Shown here piece after piece: positions 35,908 through 54,186 of a stretch of 64,000 bases of DNA (position 1 is its first letter; each line of letters opens with the position of its first letter). Origin of the DNA: an uncultured virus (IMG/VR IMGVR_UViG_3300032220_002272) (taxonomy: Duplodnaviria > Heunggongvirae > Uroviricota > Caudoviricetes). The stretch lies in IMG/VR virus record IMGVR_UViG_3300032220_002272; one strand, written 5' to 3'. A model generated the notes under the pieces. That model saw only the letters and a program-made list of their open reading frames with translations, had not been told where the DNA came from and ran no database searches. The position numbers and the translations under genes are program-made.

Positions 35908-36752
35908 TACCGGCCTCCCTTCATGCTGTTCCAGTGGTCGAGCGCCGCCGTGCTGGCGACGGTGCAACCGTCATCCTGATAGGTGGGCAACCGACGTTCG
36001 GCGTCGAGACGCGTCACGTCCGCCGCCGGTATGCCCAAGTGCGCGGCAATGGCCCGATGCCCGTAGAGCAGCGCAGGTGACGCCGCCGCCGACGCTGGCG
36101 AAGGCGCCGCCCTTGATGAGCCCCCACCCGCATCGGATGCTTGCGATCCAGCGCGCTTTGTCGGGTCGCGGGGACCATACCGCCTGCTACCCTTTGGTAC
36201 TTCAGCAGCATTCGCAGACAACGCACCATCAAGCTCGATGCGTCGCGCGCAAATGCGGCTTCCCAGGCGGAAGGTTGGAAGGTTGCCCTTATCATGGAGG
36301 TGCGACGCGACCCGCTTCGGCAAGCCGAGGTATTCCGCGATGGCATCCATCCCGTACAGAATGCCGTTGGCCTCCCGTTGCGCCTGATCCGCCTCTCGTT
36401 GGGCCTCCAAGGAAGCCGCCTTACGTGCCCGGTACATCTCAACCTGCGAAGCGCGGTCAGCGATGCGTGCCGCAATGACGGACGGATCGGTTATCGGCGC
36501 CCTCCCCCTCTGCTGTGACTGCTCCACAGCAACAGTTTCCGCCGTTGCTCGCCCGCCCTTCGGTATTTTAAGACGCGCTTTGCGGTCCTCGGCGTAGCGG
36601 TCGAGGGCTGAGGGCCGTGCGTACACGGTATTTCCGGTCCCTTGGCGGAAGGTGGGCAGCCAGCCCTTGTCGGCTTCGGATTTCGCGAGAGACACGGTTA
36701 TTCCAAGATGCGCGGCGATCGCCTTGTAGCCGTGGATCAGGTCGGGCTTCAT
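35907..36752 (-). CDS. DNA-binding protein with three tandem Xis/AlpA-like domains
   Basis: Three copies of L(I/L)(H/Y)GxxAIAx(H/Y)LG...LPT(F/Y). Confidence 0.72.
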   Translation of the reverse strand: MKPDLIHGYKAIAAHLGITVSLAKSEADKGWLPTFRQGTGNTVYARPSALDRYAEDRKARLKIPKGGRATAETVAVEQSQQRGRAPITDPSVIAARIADRASQVEMYRARKAASLEAQREADQAQREANGILYGMDAIAEYLGLPKRVASHLHDKGNLPTFRLGSRICARRIELDGALSANAAEVPKGSRRYGPRDPTKRAGSQASDAGGGSSRAAPSPASAAASPALLYGHRAIAAHLGIPAADVTRLDAERRLPTYQDDGCTVASTAALDHWNSMKGGR

Positions 36753-37540
36753 GCCACCCTCCGTTCGTTCGTCAGCAACTCGGCGAGCTTCGTCAGCCCC
36801 TTCGCCGTCACCATGACCTGAAACGTCGAGCGCTCCGGCTGGCCGGGCGGCTGGTATCTGACCAGCCTGTGTTCCAGGTATCCCGCGTCGACCTTCGCCT
36901 GATAGGCAAGGATCCGTTCGCCGTCCGGCCGGCGGTAGGTCCACCCGTGCGTGCGCAGCCATTCGCCCAGCGCGCGTGGGCCGATCTGCAACGTCTTCGC
37001 CGCCGCCGTGATGTTCATGCTGCCTTCGGTGCCGGCGATCCGGTCGAGCGCTTCCGCCTTGGGCGCCAGCGTCGCGTTCTCGCCAGCAAGGGCGGTGTTT
37101 CGGTCCTCAAGCTCCAGGACCCGCTCCGAATAGCCGAGCAGCAGCCCGCGCAGCGCGGCGGGGTCATTAAGCGCCGCCGCCGTCGTCGCAGTGCCGTAAG
37201 CGCCGGACTTGCGCAGGGCGGGGATGACGTCGCCGGTGATCCACTTGCGGAACCGGTATGGCGCGGTGCCCGGCGTCATCGCATCGCGGCATCGGAGCGC
37301 CAACGTATAGACGCCTGCCTCCGACAGCGCGGTCGTTTCCTGCGCGCCGCCGGGGGTGTCGGAGATTACGACACCCTTCTCGTCAGGATCGAGCTTGGCC
37401 ACCGCGTCCCGTGCGTTCGCCAGCCCCAGGGCACGGCAAACGTCGTTGGCGATGAACCACGCCTGCCCGTCTCGCTCGATCGCGCGAACGGGGGTCGTGT
37501 CGAATTGAAATGGTGTGATCGCGTTCATGGGTATCTCCAT
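36749..37540 (-). CDS. Bro-N/KilAC antirepressor
   Basis: WFIANDVCRALG, FRKWITGDVIPALRKSGAY, APKAEALDR, VTAKGL. Confidence 0.88.
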   Translation of the reverse strand: MEIPMNAITPFQFDTTPVRAIERDGQAWFIANDVCRALGLANARDAVAKLDPDEKGVVISDTPGGAQETTALSEAGVYTLALRCRDAMTPGTAPYRFRKWITGDVIPALRKSGAYGTATTAAALNDPAALRGLLLGYSERVLELEDRNTALAGENATLAPKAEALDRIAGTEGSMNITAAAKTLQIGPRALGEWLRTHGWTYRRPDGERILAYQAKVDAGYLEHRLVRYQPPGQPERSTFQVMVTAKGLTKLAELLTNERRVA

Positions 37541-40431: not shown

Positions 40432-40770
40432 ATGCACACGGTGATCGAAACCAATGCCTACCTTCGCGCTGCGAAGCTGGCCGGTGTCGATGACGATGAG
40501 CGCTCCGCGATCGTTGACCTGATCGCGGAGAACCCGGAGGCCGGCGACATAATGCCCGGATGCGGCGGCGCGCGAAAGCTTCGCGTGGCGCGTGAGGGCG
40601 GCGGAAAGTCAGGCGGCTATCGGGTCGTGACCTACTTTGCGGGTGAGGCGTTTCCGGTGTTCCTGCTCACGGTCTTCCCGAAGAATGTGAAGACCAACCT
40701 TACCAAGGACGAGCAGAACACGTTTGCCAGCGCCTGCAAGCGGCTGACTGATGGACTTGGAGGACGATAA
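40432..40770 (+). CDS. higB: RelE/HigB-family toxin
   Basis: NPEAGDIMPGCGGARKLR..GKSGGYRVV. Confidence 0.88.
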   Translation: MHTVIETNAYLRAAKLAGVDDDERSAIVDLIAENPEAGDIMPGCGGARKLRVAREGGGKSGGYRVVTYFAGEAFPVFLLTVFPKNVKTNLTKDEQNTFASACKRLTDGLGGR

Positions 40771-41063
40771 TGGCTCGCAAGGCATTCGACATGATGATGG
40801 ACGGCATCGCCGATGCCATCGCCTATGTTGAGGGTGACGAAAGCAAGGCGCGCGTCGCGAAGCCGATCGACGCCAAGGCCGTGCGCGTGGCCACCAAGAA
40901 GACGCAGGCCGAATTTGCGCAAACCTATCACCTCCCCATTGGGACAGTGCGGGATTGGGAGCAGAAACGGCGCTATCCTGATGCGCCCGCGCGCGCCTTC
41001 CTGGCGATGATCGAGGCCGAACCGGAGACGGTCGAGCGGCTGATGGCGAAGGTATCCGCGTAA
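40770..41063 (+). CDS. higA: HTH-XRE antitoxin
   Basis: TQAEFA..TVRDWEQKRRYPDAPARA; toxin-first order. Confidence 0.88.
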   Translation: MARKAFDMMMDGIADAIAYVEGDESKARVAKPIDAKAVRVATKKTQAEFAQTYHLPIGTVRDWEQKRRYPDAPARAFLAMIEAEPETVERLMAKVSA

Positions 41064-41315
41064 TTACCCCATCGTAAGGGGACGCCGCCGCCGCCGTTGA
41101 TCGGAAGCGTCCGCAGGCCCCTCCACGACATACACGCTGGCGCGGGTAATCGTGACCCGCGCAGAGGCACCCTCGACGACGTAGAGCGCGCCGCGGGAGG
41201 CAAAGCATCGCGCCGCCGCGCCCTCGACCGCGTACAGGCTGGCGCGCGAGACGTTCGCACCGCCAGCGCTCCCCTCAACCGCATAGAGGCTCGCGTGGCT
41301 CACTTCGGCCGTCAT
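41064..41315 (-). CDS. Small protein with four ~17-aa repeats
   Basis: Repeats ASLYAVEG, ASLYAVEG, GALYVVEG, ASVYVVEG; TGATG coupling. Confidence 0.6.
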   Translation of the reverse strand: MTAEVSHASLYAVEGSAGGANVSRASLYAVEGAAARCFASRGALYVVEGASARVTITRASVYVVEGPADASDQRRRRRPLTMG

Positions 41316-42283
41316 CAGGCCAGCGCCTCGAAACCAAATTCGCCGTTGGCGTGATCGATCGCGCGCCAGGCGCCCCCGGTCACAGGATCCCCGTCGAAAA
41401 TGGTAAGCGAGCCGGCAAACCCCGGCCCGATTCGCGCGGCATAGCCACCCCGATAGAGCTTCCCGTCGACGCGCAGCAGCGCGCGGACGTTCTGCGGCGC
41501 GTCCCCATCGTCGTTGCGAAGGCGCGCGCCGATGGCAACGGCCTTCACGATGTTGCCCGCTGGCGTGGCGGACAGCGCAGGCCCTGTGTACGTCGCCATC
41601 TGGCCTACGTCCGTCGCGCCGATCGTGGTGGTATCGTCAAGTGCAGCCTTGCCGATCGCGGCGACATCCCCGGACCAGTCCGCCGCCGCGCCCGCCGCGG
41701 TGGGGCGGCGGACGCGGACGGTATGGCCGATCGTCCCATAGCTGGCGGCGATGACATCGCGGATCGTCTGGCCGTCATATCCCGATGCCCCGCGGAAACG
41801 CAGGCGTCCGACGTTGCCGATACCCGACGTGTCGATGCCCTTCAGGTCGAGCAGCAGTCCTCCGTTCCAGAAAAGCGCGATTCGCCCCTCGCTCCCATCG
41901 ACAACGATCAGCGCGTCGAGTGCCCCGGAATTGAGCGCCGGAAAGTCGCCCGCGGTTCGCCATGCCCCGTCGGGGCCGCGAAAGCGGAACGTCATGCCGC
42001 GGTTCGCATTGCCCTCCGCCTGCACCGCATCCGCCCCGGCAGCCGTCATCCAGGTGATCGGGAACCGGCCGCGGTCATAGGTGCCGTAGGCCGGGGCGAG
42101 CGCGACATGCGTCCACAGCCGCTTCAGCGATGCCCCGGCGCCGGTTGCCGGGTCGATCAGTACCGCGTCGGCATAGGCCGCAGCGCTGGTCCCGATCTCC
42201 ACCGCGGCGTCGCCGGCCGCGCGCGGCTGCGTCGGGGACAATTCATAGGCGTCGACGCCGCCCGCCGCGAAATATGTCGGCAT
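41315..42283 (-). CDS. Beta-rich putative virion/adhesin protein
   Basis: 322 aa, beta-strand rich, coupled to neighbours; function inferred. Confidence 0.55.
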   Translation of the reverse strand: MPTYFAAGGVDAYELSPTQPRAAGDAAVEIGTSAAAYADAVLIDPATGAGASLKRLWTHVALAPAYGTYDRGRFPITWMTAAGADAVQAEGNANRGMTFRFRGPDGAWRTAGDFPALNSGALDALIVVDGSEGRIALFWNGGLLLDLKGIDTSGIGNVGRLRFRGASGYDGQTIRDVIAASYGTIGHTVRVRRPTAAGAAADWSGDVAAIGKAALDDTTTIGATDVGQMATYTGPALSATPAGNIVKAVAIGARLRNDDGDAPQNVRALLRVDGKLYRGGYAARIGPGFAGSLTIFDGDPVTGGAWRAIDHANGEFGFEALA

Positions 42284-42771
42284 CAGATGGCCACCCCGGA
42301 AATTGTGAAGCGTAGGCGCGCGATGGTCGGGTCAACGACTTCCGGCGCGATGACGGTGACGATATCTCCGACCGCGATCGAGTACCGGCGGTCGAAGGAA
42401 TTGACGAACAGACTCGTCCCATCACTTCCGATGGTCAGCGCCCCGATCGCCTGCCCGTTGACCGACAATTCCGCCGACCAGAACGTCGACGGCGGTGTGC
42501 CGACGCTGGCGACGCAACCCGCGAAGTCCGCCGCCAGGACGTGCGGCGCCGCCGCGACATGATCGAGGAGAATTTCCTTCGACGCGACATCCCCCACGGC
42601 GAAACCGCCGAAGCGATAGAAGCCAGTGATGGTGTCGGGGGCAGGATCGATCCCCCGCAGGATCGTTGCAACCGGGATCGCGATTTGTCGGCCATCCTGG
42701 AAGGCGGCAAGGAGCTCTCCCCCATCAAGTGGGCGCGATGGGCCGGGATAGGCCGCAATAGTCGAGAACAT
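42283..42771 (-). CDS. Fibre-like protein
   Basis: GGAG RBS; N-terminal LDGGELLAAFQDG motif; C-terminal FAGCVASVG...VNG...GDIVTVIAP...DPTIA domain. Confidence 0.55.
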   Translation of the reverse strand: MFSTIAAYPGPSRPLDGGELLAAFQDGRQIAIPVATILRGIDPAPDTITGFYRFGGFAVGDVASKEILLDHVAAAPHVLAADFAGCVASVGTPPSTFWSAELSVNGQAIGALTIGSDGTSLFVNSFDRRYSIAVGDIVTVIAPEVVDPTIARLRFTISGVAI

Positions 42772-42877
42772 ATTCACTCCGGCGGTAATTTCCGCGCGAA
42801 CCGTTATTGCGCCGCGCGGCGTTGGCGTTGAGAATATCGGCGCGTTGCGCGTTGATGCGCAGAACAGGAGACGGTCG

Positions 42878-43204
42878 ATGCTGAAGACATTTGGTTTGCT
42901 GATCGCGCTTGGCGGAGTTTCGATAGCGGCCACGATGCCGGCGACGGCCTCGCTCTACCCGTCGTACATCCGCAAACATTACCCCAAGTCGATCCAGCCA
43001 CTGCTGCTGCGGGAAAATGCTTTGGACGATCAATGCAGCGGCGCGTCTGGCGACCTGCCCTCCACCCAGCGAGCCTGCCGGCAGCGCGACGGAGTCGTAA
43101 GGCAGCTGAAGGCGAAGGGGTGGTGCTGGGGATCGAAAGACCCAGACGCTATTGGGGCAGACATGACATGGCTGCTGTGCCGGGATGATCGGTCGGGCGG
43201 ATAA
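42878..43204 (+). CDS. Secreted 4-Cys protein, candidate inhibitor of the satellite TMP hydrolase
   Basis: AGGAG RBS, signal peptide, convergent with the satellite TMP; function inferred. Confidence 0.65.
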   Translation: MLKTFGLLIALGGVSIAATMPATASLYPSYIRKHYPKSIQPLLLRENALDDQCSGASGDLPSTQRACRQRDGVVRQLKAKGWCWGSKDPDAIGADMTWLLCRDDRSGG

Positions 43205-43209
43205 GCCGA

Positions 43210-44856
43210 CTAGCGGCTGTTACTGAATGCGTGGCTGATCGCGCCGCCGGCTCTTGCAGTCGCCTTCACGCCAGCGGGCGCGTTTTTGAACTCGATCTCG
43301 AGCAAAATGCGCTCCGCGATGTTCGCACGATCGGCGCTATCTCGGTCCTTTTCTTTGGGTCGCTCGTAATATCGGGTGATGGCTTCGGCCTTATCACCGG
43401 TCCCTTGTGCTTGCGAAATCAGCCGCGCGGCCTTCTTCTCAGTGTGACCCAGCTCCCATTTGCGGAACCGCTGCTGATCCTCATACGACGAACCGTATAT
43501 GCTTTTCCCCATCGCCTTCTGGAAGTCGATGCGGCGATCGTTCTTTTTATCGTAGGCACCCCATTGAAAGAGACCGTACCCTGGCCCCTTCGGTTGCTGT
43601 CGGTGCGGATCATTGTTGCTCTCGGCTTCGCCGACCGCAGCCCAAGCGGCAGCTTCGTCGGCTGGCATGCCTTCCGAACGATACCTGAGATAATGCTTAC
43701 TCGCGGCGCGCGCCAAGCTATCGACCTTCTTCGGGCTAAACCGCCCACCGCGGCGCCACCCCTTGGTGTAGCCGGAGGGCGGCGCTGACACTCCACCGCT
43801 CTCCACGCCGCCGCCTGCGGGGGCGGGCGATGCCTCCGAACCGCTGGCGCCGCCGCCCTTGGTCAGCGCCTCGTATCCCGCAATGGCGCCATCGCCGACC
43901 GTCTTGACCGCCGTCGCATTCGCGCGCTGCACGGCATTCAGGCCCTTTCCCGCCCACTGCATCGCCTTCGTGTCGCGCCGGGTGATATCGCGCCCGAGCT
44001 TCACGTCGTCGTCGGTGATGACGGTGCCGTTCTCGCCGTAATCCTTCATGTCCGCCGACAGCGCGGCACCCCCTTGGGTGAAGGCGGCGAGCGCGCCATC
44101 CGATATGCCCAGGGCGCGGCCGGCCGTCCGTTGCCCGGACGAGTTTTGCCGAGAGATGGCATTGGCGATCGAGGGGATCATGGCCTCCACGTCGACGGTG
44201 CCGTCGTCTTTCGTCTTCATGGCGACGCCCATCTTGGACAGGATCGCCAGCGCCCCGGAGTTGCGGCCGTACCTCGCATCGTTGAGCGTCTGCGACAGAC
44301 CGGCCATGGACCCCATCGCCGTATTCTTGTCGACTCCGACCCGCTCAGCAGCCCCCGCGAACTCCTGTAGGCCCTTTGTGCTGACGCCCATGAGGGATGC
44401 CATGTTGCCGAGCTGGTTCGCACCCTTGCCCCACGAGTCTGCCAGCTTCACCATACCGGCCGCCAGGCCGACGACGGCCGCGCCGGCCGTCAGCGCCGCG
44501 CCGCCGATCCCGACGATACCAGCCTCCAGGGCGCCCGCACCGACTGCGGCCTCGCCCATCGATCCGCCGGCGAGGGTCGCCATGTTGCGGATCGCGCCTA
44601 GGCGGCTGATGACGCCGGAACCGTTGCTACCCAGGGGGCCGGCGAAGGCGCGTTCGGTCGCGCGCTCCACCTCGCCGAACGTGCGCGTGATGCCACGCCC
44701 CCAACGCGATATGCCGCGCTGGGTCGCCCCCATGCCCCGGTCAGCGCCCTTCGCCATTTTTTTGGTCGCGCCGTCAAAGCGACGTTCCGCTTTGGCGATG
44801 CCCTTCGCCGTCTTGTCGTTGGCGACGATATCGATGCCGACGCGAGGTGCGTTCAT
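43210..44856 (-). CDS. Satellite tape measure paralogue with phage-tail-lysozyme-like domain
   Basis: Shares IDIxANDxTAKG, LSQTLNDARYGRN, DDGTV, RQNSSG and AISHA with the helper TMP; AES..GYGLFQW...WEL...YYERP. Confidence 0.85.
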   Translation of the reverse strand: MNAPRVGIDIVANDKTAKGIAKAERRFDGATKKMAKGADRGMGATQRGISRWGRGITRTFGEVERATERAFAGPLGSNGSGVISRLGAIRNMATLAGGSMGEAAVGAGALEAGIVGIGGAALTAGAAVVGLAAGMVKLADSWGKGANQLGNMASLMGVSTKGLQEFAGAAERVGVDKNTAMGSMAGLSQTLNDARYGRNSGALAILSKMGVAMKTKDDGTVDVEAMIPSIANAISRQNSSGQRTAGRALGISDGALAAFTQGGAALSADMKDYGENGTVITDDDVKLGRDITRRDTKAMQWAGKGLNAVQRANATAVKTVGDGAIAGYEALTKGGGASGSEASPAPAGGGVESGGVSAPPSGYTKGWRRGGRFSPKKVDSLARAASKHYLRYRSEGMPADEAAAWAAVGEAESNNDPHRQQPKGPGYGLFQWGAYDKKNDRRIDFQKAMGKSIYGSSYEDQQRFRKWELGHTEKKAARLISQAQGTGDKAEAITRYYERPKEKDRDSADRANIAERILLEIEFKNAPAGVKATARAGGAISHAFSNSR

Positions 44857-44936
44857 GCTGCATTCCTTAAGGGAGACCTGCGCCGACGTCGCGGCGAGGG
44901 TAGGCCGGCGGGACGATTACCGCCGGCCGGGATCGA

Positions 44937-45098
44937 TCAGGCGTCAGCCTGCGGAGCGAACTCGAGGCCGGCCCACTGGCACCAGCGCCAGAGGTCCGAC
45001 CACCGGCGCGCGGCGATCACGTCGGGCGCCTGCCCGTAGCGCATCGCCAGCGCGTCGATCAGCGGTCCCCAGCCGGCAGGCCGGGCACGAGAAAATTT
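44937..45098 (-). CDS. -1 frameshift extension of the satellite chaperone
   Basis: A AAT TTT heptamer; -1 frame RPAGWGPLIDALAMRYGQAPDVIAARRWS is homologous to the helper extension. Confidence 0.75.
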   Translation of the reverse strand, partial: KFSRARPAGWGPLIDALAMRYGQAPDVIAARRWSDLWRWCQWAGLEFAPQADA

Positions 45099-45625
45099 GC
45101 CAGATAGCTCCCCGCCGCCACCAGGTCCCGCGCCCCCAGCTTGTGGAGCGCCACCTCCGGCACACCGGATACCGCGCCGATAATTTTCAGATCGGCGAGG
45201 ATCCCGTCCGCCTTATCCCACTCGATCAGCTGGTTCGCCGTCGGCTCATGGAGCGCGATCTGACGATAGGTCGTCTCGCCGTGCTCGATCGGATACCGCA
45301 AGTCGATGACGAGCTCGGCGGGTACGTCCTGCGGCTGATCGACGCTGACTAGGCCGAACGCGTTGACGAACTCCGCTGCGGCGATGATGTCGCGGGCGAC
45401 GAGCTGGCCAATGACGCTGACCGGTCGGCCCGATACGACCGACACTGCAACGATGTTTGCTTCGATGCCGGACAGGTGCGCCCATCGCAACATTTCGCCC
45501 GCGCGAGGCTCCCGCAGATCAAGGGTCGCGACCGACTCGTCGAGGAAGGGGACGGGCTTGCGCAGGGTAAGGGTCCGGGTGTCCGGCATGATATCAGCCA
45601 TGGCGGGGGTATCGGTATCGTTCAT
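45059..45625 (-). CDS. Satellite tail assembly chaperone with two tandem gp41-like domains
   Basis: LRKPV..LREPRAGE..VSGRP and LRYPI..LHEPTANQ..VSGVP; similar to 22648-23001. Confidence 0.8.
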   Translation of the reverse strand: MNDTDTPAMADIMPDTRTLTLRKPVPFLDESVATLDLREPRAGEMLRWAHLSGIEANIVAVSVVSGRPVSVIGQLVARDIIAAAEFVNAFGLVSVDQPQDVPAELVIDLRYPIEHGETTYRQIALHEPTANQLIEWDKADGILADLKIIGAVSGVPEVALHKLGARDLVAAGSYLANFLVPGLPAGDR

Positions 45626-45720: not shown

Positions 45721-46143
45721 TCAGGCGGTGAGGAAGTCGCGGATCGTGGCGAGCGTCGCCGCACGGACGCCGGCGTCCTGGCGGACGAACAGGCCATCCC
45801 CGTCGTTGAGCGCGGTGACGGGGCGAAGGCCCCAGCCAGCACCGTTCGCCGGCAGCGCGAAGGCTGATGCCGTTCCCGTGGTGATCCAGGCGATCAGCTG
45901 GTCGACCGTCGCAATGCCGCAGCCGCCGGTTGCGCCGCTCATGACGCGCAGCTGCTCCGTGCCGCTGATCGCGGTGACGGCCGGTTGACCGACCGGCGGA
46001 TTGGGCGCGCCCGCGCCGATCGGTTGGCCGCGGACGATCTGGCGCAGCTGCGCGAGCGTCACCGTGCCACCGCGTCCGGCGACGTTGAGCGGAATGCCTT
46101 CGCTCCCGTCGAGCGGAAATGCGGGGGGTGAGAATGCGACCAT
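45721..46143 (-). CDS. Protein with three fibre-type repeats
   Basis: LDGSE..TLAQL / ISGTE..TVDQL / LNDGD..TLATI; AAGGA RBS. Confidence 0.55.
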   Translation of the reverse strand: MVAFSPPAFPLDGSEGIPLNVAGRGGTVTLAQLRQIVRGQPIGAGAPNPPVGQPAVTAISGTEQLRVMSGATGGCGIATVDQLIAWITTGTASAFALPANGAGWGLRPVTALNDGDGLFVRQDAGVRAATLATIRDFLTA

Positions 46144-46205
46144 GAGGTGTCCTTTCGTGCGGTCGAGGATGAGAGGGGAGGCGCGGGCTTGGCCGCAGCG
46201 CGCCG

Positions 46206-46931
46206 ATGGCGCAGGCTGCGCGCATGACGATCGAAGTGACCAAGATGATTGAGCCGGCGAAGGCCGTGCTTGCCCCCGCTGGGAACACATTGAGCGAGGC
46301 GTGGGCCGGCGTGATCGGTGATCGCGTCGCCGCGTGGCGCCTGAAGAACGCCGCCGCGTTACAGGTAAAAGTGAACGAGGAATGCGCGGCGTTGGGGCTG
46401 AAGGTCGACCGCGCCAAGATCCCCGAACGCTATGCGATCGCGTGGTTCGAGGAAGCGACGAAACAGGACGAGCCGGAGATACAGACGCTATTCGCACGCC
46501 TGCTAGCGCGGGCCACAGCGGGGGATGACGATGCCGGCGACCGCCGCCTACTGGCGATCGTCAGCCAACTGACGCCGATTGATGCGAAGGTGCTGGAGTG
46601 GCTGTTCAAAAGGGTAGGGCACCCCACTGCGTTTCCGCAGATCGAAGAATTCGTGGCTTGGCGTGAGGTCAAAGACGAGTTTGGCGAACGCGCGCTCATC
46701 TCACTCGACCAATTCGTCGTGCTTGGAATATTCGAACGGCAGTATTCATTGCGCAACGACGCCGGCCTATCGTCATGGCATTCGGTAGAGTCCGGGATGT
46801 CGATCAGTCGCCTAGCGGAAGACATCACGGGCAATATGACGGTCACGCCCGATCTGTCCGCAACGCCTTTGGGATTGGCGCTGTATAAGGCCTGCCTTTC
46901 TGGCAACCCCCAGGAAGTCACCGGGGGGTGA
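46206..46931 (+). CDS. Abi-alpha (DUF4393)-like protein
   Basis: WRLKNA...EEATKQDEPEIQTLFARLLA...IVSQLTPIDAKVL. Confidence 0.7.
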   Translation: MAQAARMTIEVTKMIEPAKAVLAPAGNTLSEAWAGVIGDRVAAWRLKNAAALQVKVNEECAALGLKVDRAKIPERYAIAWFEEATKQDEPEIQTLFARLLARATAGDDDAGDRRLLAIVSQLTPIDAKVLEWLFKRVGHPTAFPQIEEFVAWREVKDEFGERALISLDQFVVLGIFERQYSLRNDAGLSSWHSVESGMSISRLAEDITGNMTVTPDLSATPLGLALYKACLSGNPQEVTGG

Positions 46932-47505
46932 GGCGAGGGTCCGTCAAGTCTTGCTCGAAAATCTCCAGCGAGGCGAGACGAGCGCGGACGTGCCGGTGTA
47001 GGACCGCTTGCACCGCGTCCACCCGACCGGGGATCCCCAGGTCAGCCGCGACGGCCGCCGCGATGCCCCCCGGCCACCGGTCCCACCCCGCGTCCTTACA
47101 CGCCTCGTCCCAGGCGGCGTGATCCGCAGCGTCTAGGGCTTCCACCCGATCGGCTTCGTCGCCGCTCTCGATCCACGTCCGCAGTTGCGTCGACATAGTG
47201 TTGGGGTTGCCGAGCCGATGCCAGCCCGCCCAGGGGGACGGCGCCGGCAGCACCTCAACGGGCTTGCCGGCGACATACCCCATGCCAGGCCGATCGATCA
47301 GGCCGCGGACGCCCTCAGTACGCCTTCCACCGTGCGCCTTTACCCGGAAACGGCCCTTGCCGGCCGCCTGCATCTTGGCGTCCGACGCCGCCGCATCGAC
47401 CTGATCGCCTTGCATGACGAGGTATCCACGGTCCTGCCATTTCTTCGCGGCCTGACGGCTGGCGCTGTGGGTGGCCGCATAGGCGGTCAGGGACATGAGG
47501 GTCAT
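46918..47505 (-). CDS. terS: Satellite terminase small subunit paralogue
   Basis: MTLMSLTAYAATHSASRQA vs helper MTLLSITAYAETHGMKRQA; C-terminal W..WP..IA..VAADLGI; adjacent to the cos copy. Confidence 0.78.
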   Translation of the reverse strand: MTLMSLTAYAATHSASRQAAKKWQDRGYLVMQGDQVDAAASDAKMQAAGKGRFRVKAHGGRRTEGVRGLIDRPGMGYVAGKPVEVLPAPSPWAGWHRLGNPNTMSTQLRTWIESGDEADRVEALDAADHAAWDEACKDAGWDRWPGGIAAAVAADLGIPGRVDAVQAVLHRHVRARLASLEIFEQDLTDPRLTPR

Positions 47506-47539: not shown

Positions 47540-47860
47540 GTTGCCCCCCCGCAACCAAGCGATGGTTGCGGGGGCAACCGGGTTCGGTTGCGGGGGCAAC
47601 CAAGATGCGGTTGCGGGGGTGCGGTTACGGGGTGTGGCCGCGCCGTCCCGATCGGGCAGACGCCCCGGATTTCTGCGGCGACAGACGCAACAAGCCCCGC
47701 AACAGGCCCCCGCAACAAGCGGCGTTTGTTGCCCGCAACAGACGCAACAGGTTGCGGGGTTTGTTGCGGGGGGTGCCGCAACCAAGATTTCGCAGATTTC
47801 TGCGGGCTAGAGGCCCCTCACCCACCCCGCAACCCCGCAACAGGTTGCCCCCGCAACCAA
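47540..47860. repeat. Array of ~15 CGCAAC/GTTGCG motifs in both orientations
   Basis: Counted by eye; lies between the satellite cos and terS. Confidence 0.8.
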
Positions 47861-47935
47861 CTTTTTGATTTCGTAGCTGGGGTTACGTCGGGGTGCGCAA
47901 TTACCCCCGTTGCAGAAGGGGGTCGGAAGGACCCA
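47851..47935 (-). other. Satellite cos copy
   Basis: Ungapped 71/85 match to 34141-34225; exact GGGTCCT cosQ-like motif. Confidence 0.8.
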
Positions 47936-48095: not shown

Positions 48096-48809
48096 CTAAC
48101 GTTTCGGCTTCATCGCCAGGCTCGCACGGAAGCCCGCCAGGATGCCAAATAGGTCGGCGGTGCGCGGTGACGGGTAGAGCTTCACGTCGTAGTGTATCGA
48201 GCCGTTCTTCGGCGTACCGATCGCGAGCACGCTGTCGTGCGTCACGCTGCGTCGCGGACCGGAATAGACGGGTTCGTTGGCGTACAGGCGGCGCGCCTGA
48301 TTGAGCGCGTCAAGTGGCCCCATGACCGCGCCATAAAAGTCGCCCCATCGCGCCTCCAGCTCGATCGTCATCGCGTCGCGGGCGACGTTGACGAAGCCTT
48401 CCCATGCGATCTCATGCAGCCGCTTGGCCTCTGCCAGGGCCTCCCGGCGCGCGGTCAGGTGATCGGATACGCTCGACAGCGCCTGCGCGATGATCGTCCG
48501 CTTGCCCCTCCACGCCGACAGGGCGGCGGCGGTGGCATCCTGCGCTTCGCGCAACCGCCCTTCCCAATCCGCTGACGCCGCCGCCGTCGGGTTGTCGGCG
48601 AGCAGCTGCGCCAACTCGGCGGTGACGTCAGGATCCTGCGCAGGCTCGATCGCAGCGTGCTCGGCCTGCGCAGCACGCAAATCGCGTTCGCGCTTGGCGG
48701 CGTCGTTCACATCGGCCTGCGCGGCCTGCACGGCAGCGGCGGCGGCGTCCACGTCCGCACTGAGGCGGACGACGCGAGCCAGAGTTTCGGGGTTCGAGAT
48801 AGGCGGCAA
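48096..48809 (-). CDS. Coiled-coil protein, paralogue of 52068-52769
   Basis: TTG start after AAGGAG; AWEGFV..EL..RW..V..PL. Confidence 0.65.
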   Translation of the reverse strand: MPPISNPETLARVVRLSADVDAAAAAVQAAQADVNDAAKRERDLRAAQAEHAAIEPAQDPDVTAELAQLLADNPTAAASADWEGRLREAQDATAAALSAWRGKRTIIAQALSSVSDHLTARREALAEAKRLHEIAWEGFVNVARDAMTIELEARWGDFYGAVMGPLDALNQARRLYANEPVYSGPRRSVTHDSVLAIGTPKNGSIHYDVKLYPSPRTADLFGILAGFRASLAMKPKR

Positions 48810-48899
48810 AGTGCATCTCCTTCGTGGCACTGGTGAAAGACGGGCTGCCGCGCGATCATCCCCGGACCGGCCAACGAGTCGGACAGGGAGGCGACAGCA

Positions 48900-49349
48900 A
48901 TGGACGAGGTTTCAGGCCACCGATTGGACGACGTGATTGCGCAAAAACGGGTGCCGGTATTGATCCGGCGCGGCCCAGGTCTTCCGCCGCGGCTTCAGAT
49001 ACCGTTCGACCTCGGCAATCGGGCTTGGTTGCGAGCGACGGGCATGAACAATCCGAAATGGATCGCGCCGGATAAGCAATGGGAGGTGCCGCAATCCCGC
49101 TTTACGGAATTGGTGAACAGGTGCCTCGAAAAATTCGGGAAGGTGTGGGTGGTCCAGCCCTACAACGAACAGGAGAAGTGCGCTCCGGCATGCTGGGACG
49201 CGGAGAAGGAAGAATGCCAGTGCTCTTGCATGGGCGTGAACCACGGCTCGCGCGGTCCGGCTGGGCGCTGGAAAATCGTGTCGGACCATTTCGCCACCCG
49301 ATGGCTCGGCGCCCGCATGGCGGCGAGGCTGGTCGTGAGACGGTCCTAG
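48900..49349 (+). CDS. Cys-rich accessory protein
   Basis: GGAGG RBS; CAPACWDA..ECQCSCMGVNHG. Confidence 0.65.
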   Translation: MDEVSGHRLDDVIAQKRVPVLIRRGPGLPPRLQIPFDLGNRAWLRATGMNNPKWIAPDKQWEVPQSRFTELVNRCLEKFGKVWVVQPYNEQEKCAPACWDAEKEECQCSCMGVNHGSRGPAGRWKIVSDHFATRWLGARMAARLVVRRS

Positions 49350-49933
49350 ATCAGGCCCGCCGTCATCCCGGCGGCGCATGTCGGCGGCGCATTGGGCGCG
49401 ACAGACGTCACGGTCTTAATCGGCTCCCGGTAGGGTGGCCGTGGTGGACCGTAGTACAGCGCGCGACTCACCATCGTTCCGTCGGATAGCAGCCGCATCG
49501 CTCCATCCTCGACCGCGATCCGCATCCATTTCTCCGGCACGTCACCGATCGGCCCGCCTTCGCGCACGCTCGAGAGCCAGAGCGGGAATTGCGCGTCTGT
49601 GAATCGCTTGACCTCGATCAGCGCGTCAGCCTGTTCCGACGCGGGGGGCTGGTAGCGGTTGAGGATGTCGAGGCATTGGCTGGGCGACGGAAACCATTCG
49701 AGGGTCGCGCAAGCCGTGCGGGCCATGAACGCCAAGGCGGCTTCGCTCCGATCGCCCAGCAACGCCGCGTAAACGGCAAACCGCATTTTCCCGGTCCGGT
49801 CGTCATCGCCGCGCGAGGGTAGCGCCGCGCGCATGAAGTCGAGATGCCGGGCCAACTGGTCGCGCGTCGCCGGCGTCGCGGCACCGCCGGCCGTGGACAA
49901 GGCCCATTCGCGCAGCTGGTCAGCCTCGGCCAT
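49346..49933 (-). CDS. Replication accessory protein (loader-like position)
   Basis: Downstream of the initiator; WFPSPSQCL; start uncertain (alternative 50059). Confidence 0.55.
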   Translation of the reverse strand: MAEADQLREWALSTAGGAATPATRDQLARHLDFMRAALPSRGDDDRTGKMRFAVYAALLGDRSEAALAFMARTACATLEWFPSPSQCLDILNRYQPPASEQADALIEVKRFTDAQFPLWLSSVREGGPIGDVPEKWMRIAVEDGAMRLLSDGTMVSRALYYGPPRPPYREPIKTVTSVAPNAPPTCAAGMTAGLI

Positions 49934-50669
49934 CGTCGTCGGCGTTCCCACCGGCCTGCACCTCACGGAGGGCGGCGACGAAGCCATCGAGGGGCCGTCC
50001 TCTATCACGCGCAGCGCCCGCGCCGCCGCCGCGCCGATCCCCGAAGGTCCGTTGTCCATGCTCGCCTCCCGTGATGCTCGATTGCCGGCGGCTGCGGCGG
50101 ACCCAATTGCGCCAGGTCGCCAGCCAATCGGCCTTCCGGCCCGCCGCGCCCGGCTGCGCGACCCAATAGTCGCGGAACACGTCCGCCTCCGCGCTGGCAT
50201 CCGCGGCGGTCCATCCGCGCTCTGCCGTCGCCCACGCAGTCCATTCGGCCGGCGGGGTGAAGTCCGACGCGAGCCGCGATCCTGATGCCGCCGCCGGCCG
50301 CGTCTTCGCGCGCACGGACTTATCTCTATTACTGACGGTTCTTGGTGTATTGGGGGGCAGCGTGTCCGGGGTTTGGGTATTCTCTGTCCGGGGGGACAGC
50401 GTGTCCGGGGGGACAGCGTGTCCGGGGTGAACGGTATAGAGAATGCCGCGACCGGGCTTTCGAATTGTGCTGATGCAGCCGCCCGCCTCCAATCGCGCCA
50501 TGACACGCCGCGCAGTGCGTACATCGACGCCGGTTTTCTCGGCTATCGTCGGCATCGATGGCCAGCACTGCCCGCTCTCATTCGCCCAGTCGGCAAGTGC
50601 GACCAGGACGAGGCGGTCGATAGGCGGAACCCCCGATGCCCACGCCTCGGCGATGAGGCGGAAACTCAT
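49920..50669 (-). CDS. Satellite replication initiator (HTH_36, lambda-O-like layout)
   Basis: LVLVALADWANESGQCWPSMPTIA; internal iterons; C-terminal FRDYW..DWLATWRNW. Confidence 0.8.
   Translation of the reverse strand: MSFRLIAEAWASGVPPIDRLVLVALADWANESGQCWPSMPTIAEKTGVDVRTARRVMARLEAGGCISTIRKPGRGILYTVHPGHAVPPDTLSPRTENTQTPDTLPPNTPRTVSNRDKSVRAKTRPAAASGSRLASDFTPPAEWTAWATAERGWTAADASAEADVFRDYWVAQPGAAGRKADWLATWRNWVRRSRRQSSITGGEHGQRTFGDRRGGGAGAARDRGRPLDGFVAALREVQAGGNADDDGRG
50352..50427. repeat. Iteron-like repeats (putative satellite ori)
   Basis: 17-bp tandem TGTCCGGGGGGACAGCG units inside the initiator gene. Confidence 0.7.
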
Positions 50670-50995
50670 TATGCATCGCCGATGCGGGGGTGAAGCTCCG
50701 TAAAGGCCCCGCGCCCCCGGCTGTGAAATCGCGTCAGGTGTCCGTCGCGTTCCAGCTCCCGGATACCGCGCTGGACGGCCCGGAGGCTGTACCCCGATTC
50801 GTGAGATATTGCCGCCACGGAGCTGCGGACCGCGCCACGCTCATCGACGTCGAGCGCAAGGACCATGAGGACCAGCTTTGCGACAGGTCCGCACCGCACG
50901 CGGGTGCATCGTTCGAACAGATCGATCACCGCCGGACTGCGATCATGGCTTGGCGTTGAGACTGACCGGTCTTTACCGGCGCATGCGTCAAGCAT
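50669..50995 (-). CDS. HTH protein
   Basis: KLVLMVLA..SVAAISHESGYSLRAVQRGIRELE. Confidence 0.65.
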   Translation of the reverse strand: MLDACAGKDRSVSTPSHDRSPAVIDLFERCTRVRCGPVAKLVLMVLALDVDERGAVRSSVAAISHESGYSLRAVQRGIRELERDGHLTRFHSRGRGAFTELHPRIGDA

Positions 50996-53195: not shown

Positions 53196-53531
53196 TCACC
53201 GCGGCCAGCGACGCGGGGGCGGGATCAGGTGCGCGAACGGAGACGATGGCGTGGGAGGTGGCGCGTCTGCATCGCCGCGAAGGTGCGCGAAAGGGCCTGA
53301 CGGCGGTGGGACCGCTGCGCCGGGGCGAAGGTGTCCGAAGGTCCCGACCGGCGGGGCGTCGCGCTTGACCAGGTGCCATACCTGCCATGGCAGGCGCCTG
53401 CGGTCCGTCCTCCGCTTCGGCTCCGGCTGCTCTGCGTTCGCAAGCACGGGCGACGGCGCGGCGGCCGGTGCCTGCCCCTTCATTGTGCGGAACGCGGCCA
53501 TGAGCATTTCGAAGGGGGAACGGCTCGCCAT
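53196..53531 (-). CDS. Pro-rich protein with repeated PFAHL-like motifs
   Basis: SPFEML, GTFGHL, GPFAHL, SPFAHL; TGATG coupling. Confidence 0.5.
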   Translation of the reverse strand: MASRSPFEMLMAAFRTMKGQAPAAAPSPVLANAEQPEPKRRTDRRRLPWQVWHLVKRDAPPVGTFGHLRPGAAVPPPSGPFAHLRGDADAPPPTPSSPFAHLIPPPRRWPR

Positions 53532-54132: not shown

Positions 54133-54186
54133 AAACTGTTGGAAAACTGCCGTTTTCTACCCTCTCAGCGTGAGAGGATACACAAG

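Follow-up and report, generated by a model that had tools for sequence, protein, structure and literature searches.

A probable phage satellite inside a Sphingomonas prophage late gene, with its own tail assembly chaperone and tape measure protein

Introduction

The locus described in this study raises the question of why DNA inserted into a prophage should encode a second tape measure protein (TMP), when that prophage already has one. The window, meaning the whole 64,000-nt stretch of DNA that was analysed, contains a Sphingomonas prophage whose head is lambda-like and whose contractile tail is Mu-like; its structural set is complete, and its own integrase and S24 repressor lie past the window end. 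Sequence comparison places a parasitic integrative element of 19,547 bp (~19.5 kb) within a late gene of this prophage, at 34,636–54,193. The element is very likely a satellite, for which the prophage is here called the helper, and 43,210–45,625 is probably the tail-core module of that satellite, made up of a frameshifting tail assembly chaperone (TAC_S) and a tape measure protein (TMP_S). The features discussed are collected in Table 1.

Table 1. Coordinates of features of the element and of its helper prophage in the window.
Feature	Position	Strand	Remarks
Helper gene convergent with TMP_H	20374..20850	+	Signal-like N-terminus, two conserved Cys
Helper tape measure protein TMP_H, 553 aa	20847..22508	-	GH73 cassette
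Helper cos-like region	33899..34225	.	88-nt conserved stretch and 4 exact TGTTGCGGG around terS start (34109)
Split helper late gene, C-terminal part	34237..34646	-	phrog_1924, E 4.3e-17, profile positions 123-237
Left junction core CCGAATATCTG, attL-like	34636..34646	-	Against intact genes in L008, L009
Tyrosine integrase int2	34666..35967	-	PF00589, E 2.7e-23; phrog_1, E 4.8e-65
HTH_17/excisionase-like DNA-binding protein, start uncertain	35907..36500	-	Weak: PF12728, E 6.6e-5; TIGR01764, E 3e-4; both below cut-off
Antirepressor (Ant), Bro-N and KilAC/ANT	36749..37540	-	91% identical to L013 homolog
RelE-family toxin (40432-40770) and HTH antitoxin-like gene (40770-41063)	40432..41063	+	PF06296, E 1.9e-10; NadS family, E 8e-12, below cut-off
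Viral-type 322-aa protein, lectin/jelly-roll-like N-terminal half	41315..42283	-	phrog_6368, E 3.4e-21
Small tail-fibre-like protein	42283..42933	-	phrog_7049 tail fibre (C-terminus), E 1.9e-7; start likely 42771
Small secreted protein, four invariant Cys, ~108 aa from internal Met	42845..43204	+	Convergent with TMP_S; phrog_25984, E 5e-17
Satellite tape measure protein TMP_S, 548 aa	43210..44856	-	C-terminal PF18013 lysozyme cassette
Tail assembly chaperone TAC_S and -1 frameshift product	44937..45625	-	TAC_S proper 45059-45625, two PF10109 units
Conserved 144-aa protein directly 5' of TAC_S	45721..46155	-	64-65% identical in L007, L014; dN/dS 0.25
Abi_alpha (abortive infection) family gene	46206..46931	+	PF14337, E 1.9e-12; same place in L007, L014
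Satellite small terminase terS_S	46918..47505	-	70% identical in L007
Element cos-like packaging region	47548..47935	.	88-nt stretch and 12 copies of (T/G)GTTGCGGG motif
Ala-rich coiled-coil protein	48096..48830	-	Paralogous to 52068-52871; 65% identical in L007
Putative replication zone	49346..50995	-	HTH_36 initiator-like gene, iterons, conserved protein
First gene inside right end	53531..54073	-	Homolog at same end of S. fuzhouensis element
Two terminator-like hairpins, each followed by T run	54058..54131	-	Folding -18.4 and -13.4 kcal/mol; just inside right junction
Split helper late gene, N-terminal part	54165..54446	-	phrog_1924 'minor tail protein', E 8.5e-25, profile positions 4-92
Right junction core CCGAATACTTG, attR-like	54183..54193	-	Same core and element end in L007

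Insertion Site and Borders

The phrog_1924 gene that the element splits lies 3' of a Q-like antiterminator and 5' of cos-terS, and is unbroken in three related prophages (L008, L009 and L025), the intact homolog in L009 being found at 19304–19981 of that locus (225 aa, E 4e-50). Homology to the uninterrupted genes of L008 and L009 starts again at the left junction, the two junctions have an 11-nt core in common with 2 mismatches, and in a related locus, L007, the right junction core and the element end are identical to those of the window element. The insertion evidently is precise. The proposal of the initial annotation that the att site lies within the helper is borne out by these borders, which put the attachment site inside a helper prophage gene. 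The element supplies no replacement sequence, as a stop lies before the C-terminal part and no start is provided, and the frame of that part is open from the junction. No empty site or circle junction that would mark an excised or packaged form was seen in the public-run contigs covering the element (four further runs/studies).

Gene Content

The integrase int2 points outward, with its stop 20 nt from the left junction, and no match to Phage_AlpA was found in the element, the HTH_17 matches being weak only. The putative replication zone comprises an HTH_36 initiator-like gene at 50669–50995 (weak matches to PF13730, E 6.9e-6, and to PHROG replication-initiators, E 3e-6 or weaker), three 28-nt iterons at 50345–50428 (repeat family D10) and a conserved protein at ~49346–50059; no primase or helicase was found in the element. 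Searches with Pfam, PHROGs and NCBIfam returned no capsid, portal, protease, terL, sheath, tube or baseplate family in the element ORFs scanned, although ~14 of these are without any family and may include a divergent structural gene, and Pfam and PHROGs gave no baseplate hub match in these ORFs, the genes after TMP_S being fibre-like or lectin-like. With PF10109 upstream of TMP_S, this agrees with the earlier view that the satellite brings a chaperone and no tube, sheath or baseplate.

The Tape Measure and Chaperone Module

TMP_S fits the plan of the TMPs of the Sphingomonas lambda-head/Mu-tail group, which are encoded after a frameshifting chaperone and consist of a conserved N-terminal region of ~350 aa, an internal hydrolase cassette and a conserved C-terminal stretch of ~30 aa; the N-terminal scaffold was present in 69 of 71 homologous TMP clusters. 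TMP_S aligns with TMP_H at 37% identity across 584 columns (BLASTP, E 3e-84) and at 47% in the N-terminal 326–335 residues, and the alignment contains the motifs to which the initial annotation had drawn attention (IDI.AND.TAKG, LSQTLNDARYGRN, DDGTV, RQNSSG and AISHA). The difference in hydrolase that it reported is likewise recovered by Pfam, which gives PF18013 (Phage_lysozyme2) at residues 386–517 of TMP_S (E 8.7e-18) and PF01832 (glucosaminidase, GH73) at residues 379–505 of TMP_H (E 9.3e-23). Its remark that the two TMPs are nearly equal in length also stands (548 and 553 aa), but as a property of the family and not as a match to this helper, since TMPs from 19 loci measure 515–660 aa, mostly 544–567 aa.

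A PF10109 chaperone gene is found 5' of each TMP, satellite and helper. In TAC_S, a -1 frameshift at the slippery sequence A_AAT_TTT (45098) would add a 51-aa extension that ends at 44937 and is homologous to the extension of the helper chaperone, and the slippery site is kept in L007 and L014. The TMP_S/TAC_S pair is paralogous to the prophage's own TMP_H/chaperone pair.

Putative Packaging Functions

The small terminases of element and helper are 50% identical in the N-terminal 54 aa and 29% across 195 aligned columns, and upstream of both terS genes lies the 88-nt stretch, which is 84% identical between the two. All nine exact copies of TGTTGCGGG in the window fall in the cos-like regions, four in that of the helper and five in that of the element, where the count of 12 motif copies allows one mismatch, and the 8-mer is clustered at terS in five helper-type and two satellite-type loci. 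Compared with the helper, the element's cos-like region evidently has an enlarged array of the terS-associated 9-mer. With a cos-like stretch and a terS of its own, the element would have the means to capture the helper packaging machinery.

Relatives, Selection and Alternative Readings

The TMP gene contexts read number 28, comprising 22 of helper type, one decayed remnant and five of satellite type, namely the window element, L007, L013, L014 and L016, with the layouts of L013, L014 and L016 read from short contigs, on which structural genes may have been missed. In the satellite-type loci terS is followed by TAC and TMP, or by TMP directly, without intervening head genes. A single clade free of helper TMPs (support 100/99) takes in four of the five satellite TMPs, and the TMP of L016 falls outside it. 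In S. fuzhouensis, a syntenic element adjoins a host gene, and that assembly yielded neither a further TMP match nor any match to sheath or terL.

The segment could alternatively be what is left, in decayed or mosaic form, of another, related prophage that had inserted into the first one, in which case TMP and TAC would be left-over cargo with no present role. This would suit a layout like that of a small temperate phage (early genes, late genes, outward integrase), tail genes that are clear homologs of helper-type genes, and the S. fuzhouensis copy, which ends in an IS3 transposase with no integrase visible. However, four further loci show this reduced layout too, at 45–91% protein identity, the true remnant L026 looks different (truncated hub, baseplate fragment, inverted TAC), and each part of the split helper gene has kept an open frame. 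The dN/dS values are 0.13–0.29 for the TMP N-terminus, 0.21–0.28 for TAC and 0.08–0.26 for other element genes; a ratio near 1 had been named beforehand as the sign of decay, and the range of 0.08–0.29 speaks against it. The tail genes are under purifying selection, and the programmed frameshift is kept. Because the layout is common to four related loci and dN/dS is this low, the element is read as a satellite and not as a decayed prophage, and the remnant explanation is considered improbable.

It is also conceivable, though improbable, that the element is a satellite in which TMP_S and TAC_S mainly compete with or poison helper tail assembly, or are passively captured late genes that it does not need for its own transfer. 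The element carries Abi_alpha, blocking tail assembly is a known route of defence in the available parts of the reports on Tai (PMC11364771) and Rta (PMC12987554), and helper-embedded PICIs are described, in the part of the source available, as having a 'dynamic late zone' that contains late genes captured from the helper (PMC10111431). Against capture, the satellite TMPs are at most ~54% identical to the helper-type N-termini in the set compared and seem to be an old clade of their own, not recent captures; a complete chaperone-plus-frameshift system is kept with them; and, according to the available part of the report, deletion of tmp from a PLE satellite lowered transduction by 96–99.9% (PMC12987554).

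Comparison With Known Satellites

The initial annotation did not recognise the strategy as described, a view that has to be given up. Chimeric-tail and helper-embedded satellite strategies are already known from Vibrio PLEs and from PICI work of 2023, and the accessible portions of the literature, to which the comparisons below refer, include PLE chimeric tails with TMP and TAC (PMC12987554), an EPIP TMP (PMC12822802) and satellites embedded in late genes (PMC10111431). The PLE satellites of the Vibrio cholerae phage ICP1 encode a TMP, a TAC and a baseplate hub (BhuB) and build chimeric tails (Mathur, Boyd et al., Nature 2026, PMC12987554). The window element resembles them in having its own TMP and tail assembly chaperone, in that it would borrow sheath, tube and most baseplate parts from a contractile-tailed helper, and in that further satellite proteins may enter the virion, but no counterpart of BhuB was found in it (PMC12987554). 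Satellite and helper TMPs are 37% identical here (N-terminus 47%) and 20% identical between PLE and ICP1, and the 548 and 553 aa of TMP_S and TMP_H predict no change in tail length, whereas PLE shows one of 95 aa and 10 nm (PMC12987554). Unlike PLE, TMP_S has a cell-wall hydrolase cassette, and the window element, which is known from sequence alone, has a temperate helper in which it is embedded and an alphaproteobacterial host.

Satellites embedded in helper late genes are the helper-embedded PICIs (Tommasini, Mageeney and Williams 2023, PMC10111431). The window element shares with these its place within a helper late gene, the lack of replacement sequence, a cos-like stretch in common with the helper, captured late genes and genes for an integrase, a Bro-N protein and a protein of HTH_17 type, besides a putative replication zone (PMC10111431). 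Helper-embedded PICIs are, on the other hand, elements of Enterobacterales that sit in lambda-cognate genes and have an inward integrase, the zone order Integration-Bro-Replication-Late and an AlpA gene, and 'tape measure' has 0 occurrences in the available text of that report (PMC10111431). In the window element, by contrast, the integrase faces outward, and the Bro zone is followed by the late zone before the replication zone is reached.

P4, whose helper is P2, is an integrative satellite of a contractile-tailed cos phage with a helper-like cos site and its own replication; it is not known to have a terS, TMP or chaperone, integrates in a host tRNA gene and resizes the capsid with Sid. The window element is like P4 in being integrative and in having a contractile-tailed cos helper and a helper-like cos, to which it adds terS, TMP and chaperone, and no Sid-like capsid-resizing gene was identified in it. 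The EPIP satellites of Mycolicibacterium are reported to carry genes for a TMP and a small terminase, as the window element does, but are actinobacterial, with a siphovirus helper, a serine integrase, capsid-related genes and longer, variable tails (preprint PMC12822802). If the interpretation favoured here is correct, the two strategies, a chimeric tail with the satellite's own TMP and life in a helper late gene, would be combined in one element, and their known range would come to include an alphaproteobacterial host and a temperate helper whose head is lambda-like and whose tail is Mu-like.

Proposed Cycle

Upon helper induction, the element would excise and so mend the helper gene; the excised form would replicate, and the helper large terminase would package it into helper heads by way of the element's terS and cos. 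TMP_S, folded by its own chaperone, would replace TMP_H in tails otherwise made of helper sheath, tube and baseplate, as in Vibrio PLE, and on balance TMP_S seems to be functional and built into particles, albeit with modest assurance. As the primary attachment site is in the helper, the useful recipients would be helper lysogens. In these, the GH73 domain that helper-type tails bring in is predicted to be blocked by the periplasmic protein encoded beside TMP_H. A tail whose TMP has a PF18013 lysozyme would evade this block, and the satellite in turn carries a convergent secreted-protein gene of its own beside TMP_S. Myovirus tails assemble apart from heads, so that tails with TMP_S would serve helper genomes too, which counts against this reading. 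Escape from exclusion may be the selected benefit of TMP_S, a suggestion made with considerable doubt.

Hydrolase Exchange and Possible Superinfection Exclusion

The swapped hydrolase noted in the initial annotation is not peculiar to the satellite; the same exchange is seen between helper TMPs: P0015 is 99% identical to TMP_H over the first ~360 residues and yet has a PF18013 cassette. Five cassette types (PF18013, PF01832, PF07486, PF01464 and PF01551) occur on the one conserved scaffold, satellite TMPs carry three of them (PF18013, PF07486 or PF01464), and swapping is evidently general in this TMP family. Since cassettes change between near-identical helper TMPs and satellites have three, the difference between TMP_S and TMP_H needs no satellite-specific explanation, and it is a serious possibility, if not quite the expected one, that the difference is incidental, arising from free shuffling unrelated to entry into helper lysogens. 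What argues otherwise is P0001, which is 98% identical to TMP_S in the N-terminus and 83% in the cassette, together with the predicted inhibitor-like complex and the hydrolase-specific neighbour genes described below, which point to selection on hydrolase identity; such selection would explain general cassette shuffling too.

The initial annotation had also cast the helper gene at 20374–20850 as an exclusion factor directed at the hydrolase, and the support gained for this is computational, in the form of a predicted GH73-cleft complex and of co-occurrence with GH73 alone. With residues 365–530 of TMP_H its product gave an ipSAE of 0.91 (three runs, 0.90–0.91; best control 0.01); in calibration, 116 of 157 solved complexes attained this mark, as did 2 of 215 mismatched pairs. 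The prediction was made from self-built, shallow alignments of 3 and 12 rows and supports binding without proving it. Contacts agree between runs to at least 94%, the pLDDT of the partner is at least 93, the predicted interface on the GH73 domain lies at residues 399–403, 416–419 and 488–495, and invariant residues of the 20374–20850 protein are enriched there (14 of 32 against 8.2 expected, p 0.008). The protein is predicted to plug or bind the GH73 cleft of TMP_H. Its gene family adjoins GH73-type TMPs only (3/5 vs 0/10 loci, one-sided p 0.022). Family profile and fold searches matched it to no known inhibitor family or fold, its model resembling PsbP/Mog1/DcrB folds (TM ~0.5), and LprI lysozyme-inhibitor domains occupy the same TMP-adjacent slot in L032 and L025.

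Behind each of the satellite TMPs lies a convergent gene that encodes a small secreted protein. The family of the one in the window, 42845–43204, comprises four homologous clusters of 107–108 aa with invariant Cys columns. Its protein also aligns, at 49% identity across 63 aa (E 8e-12), with the C-terminal domain of the L032 LprI protein, which adjoins a helper-type TMP with PF18013. The product of 42845–43204 is a candidate periplasmic inhibitor of the PF18013 hydrolase.

More speculatively, and we regard this as rather unlikely, the hydrolase cassette and the adjoining convergent gene may act as key and lock, exchanged as a pair in the manner of a toxin with its immunity gene. The resident prophage or satellite would then secrete a periplasmic inhibitor directed at the hydrolase type that it encodes itself and exclude tails with the same key, whilst the satellite, having to enter helper lysogens, would bring a different key and its own lock against rival satellites. 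If true, this would account both for the rampant cassette swapping and for a satellite encoding a TMP. If the exclusion reading holds, the pairs of hydrolase and neighbour gene would constitute a new class of module for superinfection exclusion, explaining the ready swaps of tail-borne hydrolases; no description of such TMP-hydrolase/inhibitor pairs was found in open-access papers and bioRxiv.

The available part of the literature on T4 describes Spackle, a periplasmic phage protein that inhibits the gp5 lysozyme, the cell-wall hydrolase of the incoming tail (PMC7677548). The role proposed for 20374–20850, and perhaps for 42845–43204, is similar but predicted only; there is no sequence or fold kinship between 20374–20850 and Spackle, the target would be a GH73 domain inside a TMP and not a tail-spike lysozyme, and a prophage gene is concerned in place of an early gene of a lytic phage (PMC7677548). 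The exclusion idea offers a testable reason for a satellite TMP, in that the hydrolase of a TMP may be the target of a Spackle-like protein beside the helper TMP.

Further Genes of the Element

The two hairpins just inside the right junction are absent from the output of a consensus scan. The toxin-antitoxin pair is 84–89% conserved in L013. Three virion-like genes, 42283–42933, 41315–42283 and 45721–46155, come in addition to those listed in the initial annotation. The product of 45721–46155 has no family match in Pfam/PHROGs/NCBIfam-type profile searches; for that of 42283–42933, which is 66% identical in L013, the Atlas entry begins at residue 55 and Mtd_N is a lead only. The protein encoded at 41315–42283, whose Atlas look-alikes are mainly viral, is 81% identical in L013 with a dN/dS of 0.13, and is a candidate fibre or receptor-binding part.

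Helper prophage

The helper prophage, whose nearest named relatives are from Sphingomonas, carries its late genes on the minus strand and its early genes towards the end of the window (see table). The IMG/VR provirus record G001 is identical to 20847-64000 of the window and then continues for 7.5 kb. An S24 repressor and, at the far end, a second integrase with an arm-binding domain are encoded in this extension, which gives the helper a lysogeny module of its own. Its length without the element is estimated at ~43-44 kb. Record G001 begins exactly at the stop codon of the helper tape measure protein (TMP_H), so the helper baseplate and fibre genes (8.7-20.8 kb) are missing from it, and the satellite lies inside the record unmarked. 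The helper early region 57517-62742 was observed to hold a PAPS-reductase-like gene, C5 and N6/N4 DNA methylases and a full three-domain DNA polymerase III beta-clamp homolog, and the tail fibre gene 10893-14252 (1,119 aa) has internal repeats at 234-nt and 714-nt spacing (families D2-D4 and D6).

Features of the helper prophage, the satellite element and related loci, with element genes in order of transcription from the right end
Feature	Coordinates	Strand	Content or position
Helper head and packaging set	within 8,739-34,109	-	terS, gpA-type terL, gpW, lambda-family portal, S49 protease, gpD- and gpE-like head proteins, head-tail parts
Helper tail core	within 8,739-34,109	-	sheath, tube, chaperone, TMP_H
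Helper tail end	within 8,739-34,109	-	Mu gp43-like DNA circularisation protein, Mu gp44-48-like baseplate proteins, tail fibres
TMP_H	20847-22508	-	553 aa
Helper slot gene	20374-20850		family also in L010 (14427-14930) and L028 (4243-4743)
Helper early genes	~54.7 kb to window end		Q-like antiterminator (phrog_6386, E 1.5e-23), DUF1376 replication protein, RusA, two methylases, beta-clamp homolog
Element, first gene	right end		homolog at same end of S. fuzhouensis element; several unassigned genes next
Element replication zone			HTH_36 initiator-like gene, three 28-nt iterons, conserved protein
Iteron-like direct repeats	50345-50428		3 x 28 nt, between HTH_36 initiator-like gene and conserved gene
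Second weak HTH_36-like stretch	50424-50624		different frame
Coiled-coil protein, then putative cos-like region and terS_S			next in order
Abi_alpha		opposite	between terS_S and 144-aa protein gene
Conserved 144-aa protein, then TAC_S and TMP_S			next in order
TMP_S	43210-44856	-	548 aa
Convergent small gene	42845-43204		after TMP_S
Small fibre-like protein and 322-aa lectin-like viral protein			after convergent small gene
RelE-type toxin-antitoxin pair and PadR gene		opposite
Ant (Bro-N and KilAC), HTH_17/excisionase-like gene, integrase			last in order
Convergent small genes, other satellites	L007:11694-12119; L013:1753-2172; L014:3867-4109; L016:3470-3898		after the satellite TMPs
LprI-domain slot genes	L032:1683-2282; L025:4111-4776		E 1.5e-9 and 1.9e-8

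Element boundaries and gene content

In three helper-type relatives (L008, L009 and L025), a single uninterrupted gene immediately upstream of terS is homologous to both window ORFs, 54165-54446 and 34237-34587. The L009 copy encodes 225 aa, with a match to phrog_1924, 'minor tail protein' (E 4e-50), and in isolated Rhodobacter and Dinoroseobacter phages its homolog comes last before the right genome end; no homolog was found in L010 and L024, though both extend upstream of terS. The window copy is split after '...QAEYL' with both halves still open, and no start codon is supplied to the C-terminal half. This bears out the proposal of the initial annotation that the satellite att site lies within the helper. 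A junction core, CCGAATA[C/T][T/C]TG, is common to 54183-54193 and 34636-34646; this core is imperfect, with no exact repeats of at least 10 nt between 34200-34800 and 53900-54500, and the window has no tRNA gene. Together with the intact relatives, the shared cores give an element of 19,547 bp, and we consider it very likely to be a genuine, well-delimited satellite. An 88-nt direct repeat (34138-34225 and 47848-47935, 84% identical) was weighed as a pair of att sites bounding a 13.7-kb insert, but this is refuted by the true flanks in L008, L009 and L025, the repeat being the region upstream of both terS genes.

The element lies two genes downstream of the helper antiterminator and is oriented like helper late transcription. 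Two terminator-like hairpins, spotted by eye and then folded, lie just inside its right end; a consensus promoter and terminator scan of 53800-55500 listed nothing. Among the element ORFs, searches of Pfam, PHROGs and NCBIfam revealed no head, portal, terL, sheath, tube or baseplate families, and around 14 ORFs are without any family match. PADLOC gave two weak matches (the Abi_alpha ORF to PDC-S47, E 2.8e-4, and 52068-52871 to JetC, E 6.3e-4), and NCBIfam gave nothing further above its cut-offs. Two Ala-rich coiled-coil paralogs (48096-48830 and 52068-52871) are 27-28% identical; one is directly upstream of the satellite cos-like region and is kept in L007, the S. fuzhouensis element, and weakly in L016. 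Capsid-size redirection by these paralogs was considered and set aside.

Putative packaging region shared with the helper

Upstream of each terS gene, the 88-nt stretch holds an imperfect palindrome. The 9-mer TGTTGCGGG occurs in nine exact copies in the 64-kb window, four at 33899-34148 and five at 47696-47842, all of which adjoin the two terS starts. With one mismatch allowed, there are 37 matches in the whole window, against 21.3 ± 4.7 in shuffles, and 12 of the copies lie at 47548-47858; the satellite array (47548-47935) is thus three times that of the helper (33899-34225), with 12 versus 4 copies. Copies of the 8-mer are likewise grouped around the terS start in helper-type L008, L009, L010, L024 and L025, and in satellite-type L007 (nine copies) and L016 (two copies). 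The satellite small terminase, terS_S, is 50% identical to helper terS in its first 54 residues and 29% over 195 aligned columns; a query with terS_S against viral_contigs found no relative. We infer a cos-like recognition region that includes terS binding sites and is larger in the satellite. A helper-like cos in a satellite has a parallel in P4 with P2. For a helper-embedded PICI, a 258-bp stretch in common with the helper is reported (PMC10111431). An element dimer would be ~39 kb long, and packaging as a dimer or in a smaller capsid are both possible.

Two tape measure proteins and their chaperones

Both TMP ORFs are present, and their alignment displays the motifs that the initial annotation had quoted. 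TMP_S, the satellite protein, and TMP_H share 37% identity over 584 columns (E 3e-84), rising to 47% in the first 326-335 residues, and PHROGs assigns both to tape measure proteins. Their C-terminal enzymes do differ as had been claimed, with PF18013 Phage_lysozyme2 (E 8.7e-18) in TMP_S and PF01832 glucosaminidase, GH73 (E 9.3e-23), in TMP_H. The near-identical length is real, but is a family trait rather than a peculiarity of the pair, as TMPs at 19 related loci range from 515 to 660 aa, the majority being 544-567 aa.

A PF10109 chaperone gene precedes TMP_S and TMP_H alike. The satellite does bring a chaperone, and no tube, sheath or baseplate family was found in it. The window has a GC content of ~66%, and canonical -1 slippery heptamers in the right phase were found in both chaperone genes, T_TTT_TTG at 22660 in the helper and A_AAT_TTT at 45098 in the satellite, the latter being kept in L007 and L014. 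The frameshift extensions of the two chaperones (49 and 51 aa) are homologous. The satellite tail-core module looks functional.

Distribution and maintenance of the element type

Contexts were read for 28 TMP-family genes, two in the window and 26 at further loci. At genus level, 9 of 201 genomes gave a match, five of these via the TMP scaffold, and at family level 5 of 401; left out of the context count were the weak loci L023 and L035 (25-29% identity) and the genus-level matches to the lysozyme domain only (G005, G019, G045 and G202). Twenty-two contexts are helper-type, with the order sheath, tube, chaperone, TMP, DNA circularisation and baseplate, a count in which L017/L018, L021/L022 and L024/L033 are each probably one phage sampled twice. 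Five are satellite-type and one is a remnant. In the remnant (L026; G588:C1:2574000-2593999), the TMP and DNA circularisation genes are followed by a truncated hub, a baseplate J fragment and an inverted chaperone gene, with no sheath or head genes within 12 kb upstream.

A reduced layout of the kind for which a survey had been proposed, with a TMP and no capsid or sheath gene seen, occurs in four further loci besides the window element. L007 is syntenic from the right end through the TMP (60-86% identity), lies next to a host oxidoreductase gene and carries the junction core of the window element; no other TMP match, and no match to sheath or terL, was found in the S. fuzhouensis assembly. 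L013 holds the TMP, fibre-like gene, lectin-like gene, toxin-antitoxin pair, Ant and HTH_17 (52-91% identity), L014 holds Abi_alpha, the 144-aa protein, chaperone and TMP, and in L016 a coiled-coil protein and terS are followed directly by the TMP. A tree built on the N-terminal 345 residues groups four of the five satellite TMPs in a single clade (support 100/99), which also holds eight proteins of unknown context and zero helper TMPs; L016 lies apart.

Decay of the satellite TMP had been set as a refuting test. Among satellite copies, dN/dS is 0.13-0.29 for the TMP N-terminus, 0.21-0.28 for the chaperone, 0.13 for the lectin-like gene, 0.19 for the fibre-like gene and 0.08 for Ant, in comparisons with dS of 0.65-1.75, partly near saturation. 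The pattern fits a maintained element type rather than decay. Contigs of four further studies (public runs X5, X9, X10 and X12) cover 29-30 of 30 element bins, and no empty-site or circle-junction joins were found among them. Joints in X9 and X10 (36074 to 53854 and 53946 to 36749) were rejected as excision, since they fit the likeness of two HTH_17-type genes, both matched by one L007 stretch. The element variants in X9 and X10 are 95-99% alike over most of their length; over 43094-44425, inside TMP_S, contig cover at 90% likeness is scant or absent. Such a gap proves nothing and is, from contigs only, a hint at most.

Proposed mechanism and relation to known satellites

By analogy with PLEs and helper-embedded PICIs, the element would excise upon helper induction, restoring the helper gene, and would then replicate. 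Helper terL would package it through terS_S and the cos-like site, and TMP_S, chaperoned by TAC_S, would take the place of TMP_H in chimeric tails. Myovirus tails assemble apart from heads, and tails with TMP_S would therefore serve the helper too.

The strategy, which the initial annotation did not recognise as described, is already known in its parts. PLEs carry genes for a TMP, a TAC and a baseplate hub, and their building of chimeric tails was demonstrated with western blots, mass spectrometry, electron microscopy and deletions; the legend of Extended Data Fig. 10 names putative tmp genes in PLE-like elements and cf-PICIs (PMC12987554). EPIPs also encode a TMP (PMC12822802). Helper-embedded PICIs interrupt helper late genes without replacement sequence and have a cos-like stretch in common with the helper (PMC10111431). 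PLEs share TMP and TAC with the present element but also have a hub gene, none being found here; helper-embedded PICIs share the interrupted late gene without replacement sequence and the cos-like stretch, but the layout of the present element departs from theirs in zones and orientation. What is seen here is the combination of PLE, EPIP and helper-embedded PICI features in one alphaproteobacterial element, and no description of a Sphingomonas satellite of this kind was found in the open-access papers searched.

Hydrolase exchange and the genes adjoining the tape measure proteins

The proposed benefit of the swapped hydrolase is that it would allow entry into helper lysogens past a hydrolase-specific periplasmic block. 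The difference between TMP_S and TMP_H may instead be incidental, because cassette shuffling is general across the TMP family. A common N-terminal scaffold is carried by 69 of 71 homologous protein clusters, followed by PF18013, PF01832, PF07486, PF01464, PF01551 or no recognised domain. The satellite TMPs are themselves mixed, with PF18013 in the window, PF07486 in L007, L013 and L014, and PF01464 in L016. Over the N-terminal 345 residues compared, the helper-type TMP P0015 shares 99% identity with TMP_H; it stays near-identical to around residue 360, after which it has a PF18013 cassette instead of GH73 and then TMP_H-like last 30 residues. Another homolog, P0001, matches TMP_S at 98% in the N-terminus but at 83% in the cassette. 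The P0015/TMP_H pair and the mixed cassettes show that the swap is a clean internal cassette exchange which includes helper phages, so the exchange stands as claimed but is not peculiar to the satellite. Escape from hydrolase-specific exclusion as the selected benefit is a tentative reading that we lean somewhat against.

The proposal that helper gene 20374-20850 is the exclusion factor fares better in part. In helper-type loci, opposite-strand genes with signal-bearing products have a slot between the TMP and DNA circularisation genes; at 9 of 16 loci the gap there measures 337-1,778 nt. The 20374-20850 family, which has a signal-like N-terminus and two invariant Cys, occupies the slot in the window, L010 and L028, all with GH73-type TMPs (3 of 5 distinct GH73 loci versus 0 of 10 others; one-sided Fisher p 0.022). 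A complex of its residues 18-158 with TMP_H 365-530 was predicted with an ipSAE of 0.91 (runs 0.90-0.91; best control 0.01), on a calibration in which 116 of 157 solved complexes and 2 of 215 mismatched pairs reach the mark, counts that are rough with custom alignments. The runs share at least 94% of contacts, with partner pLDDT of at least 93. The predicted interface on TMP_H comprises residues 399-403 (LESSY), 416-419 and 488-495 (with YATD), which we take to line the GH73 catalytic cleft, and the partner's invariant residues are enriched there (14 of 32 versus 8.2 expected, p 0.008). The prediction supports, but does not prove, binding of this protein to the GH73 domain; the predicted cleft complex and GH73-only co-occurrence favour a role in exclusion. 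There is no PDB sequence match to the protein, its model resembles PsbP/Mog1/DcrB-like folds only (TM ~0.5), and no solved inhibitor complex is among the top fold hits. Inhibition of gp5 lysozyme by T4 Spackle is a precedent for the proposed role (PMC7677548).

Slot genes for proteins with an LprI lysozyme-inhibitor domain were found in L025 and in L032, which has a PF18013 TMP. All five satellite TMPs are directly followed by a convergent gene for a small signal-bearing protein, whose family tracks the hydrolase type of the adjoining TMP, the three PF07486 satellites having one family in common. The proposed hydrolase/inhibitor pairing is the most original lead here, and no description of TMP-hydrolase/inhibitor pairs was found in the open-access papers searched. 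A model of the window protein from 42845-43204 (pLDDT 73.3) had no Foldseek match at E 0.001 or better. In sequence, it resembles the C-terminal domain of the L032 LprI protein (49% identity over 63 aa, E 8e-12), and its family, which has four invariant Cys, includes four further clusters of 107-108 aa.
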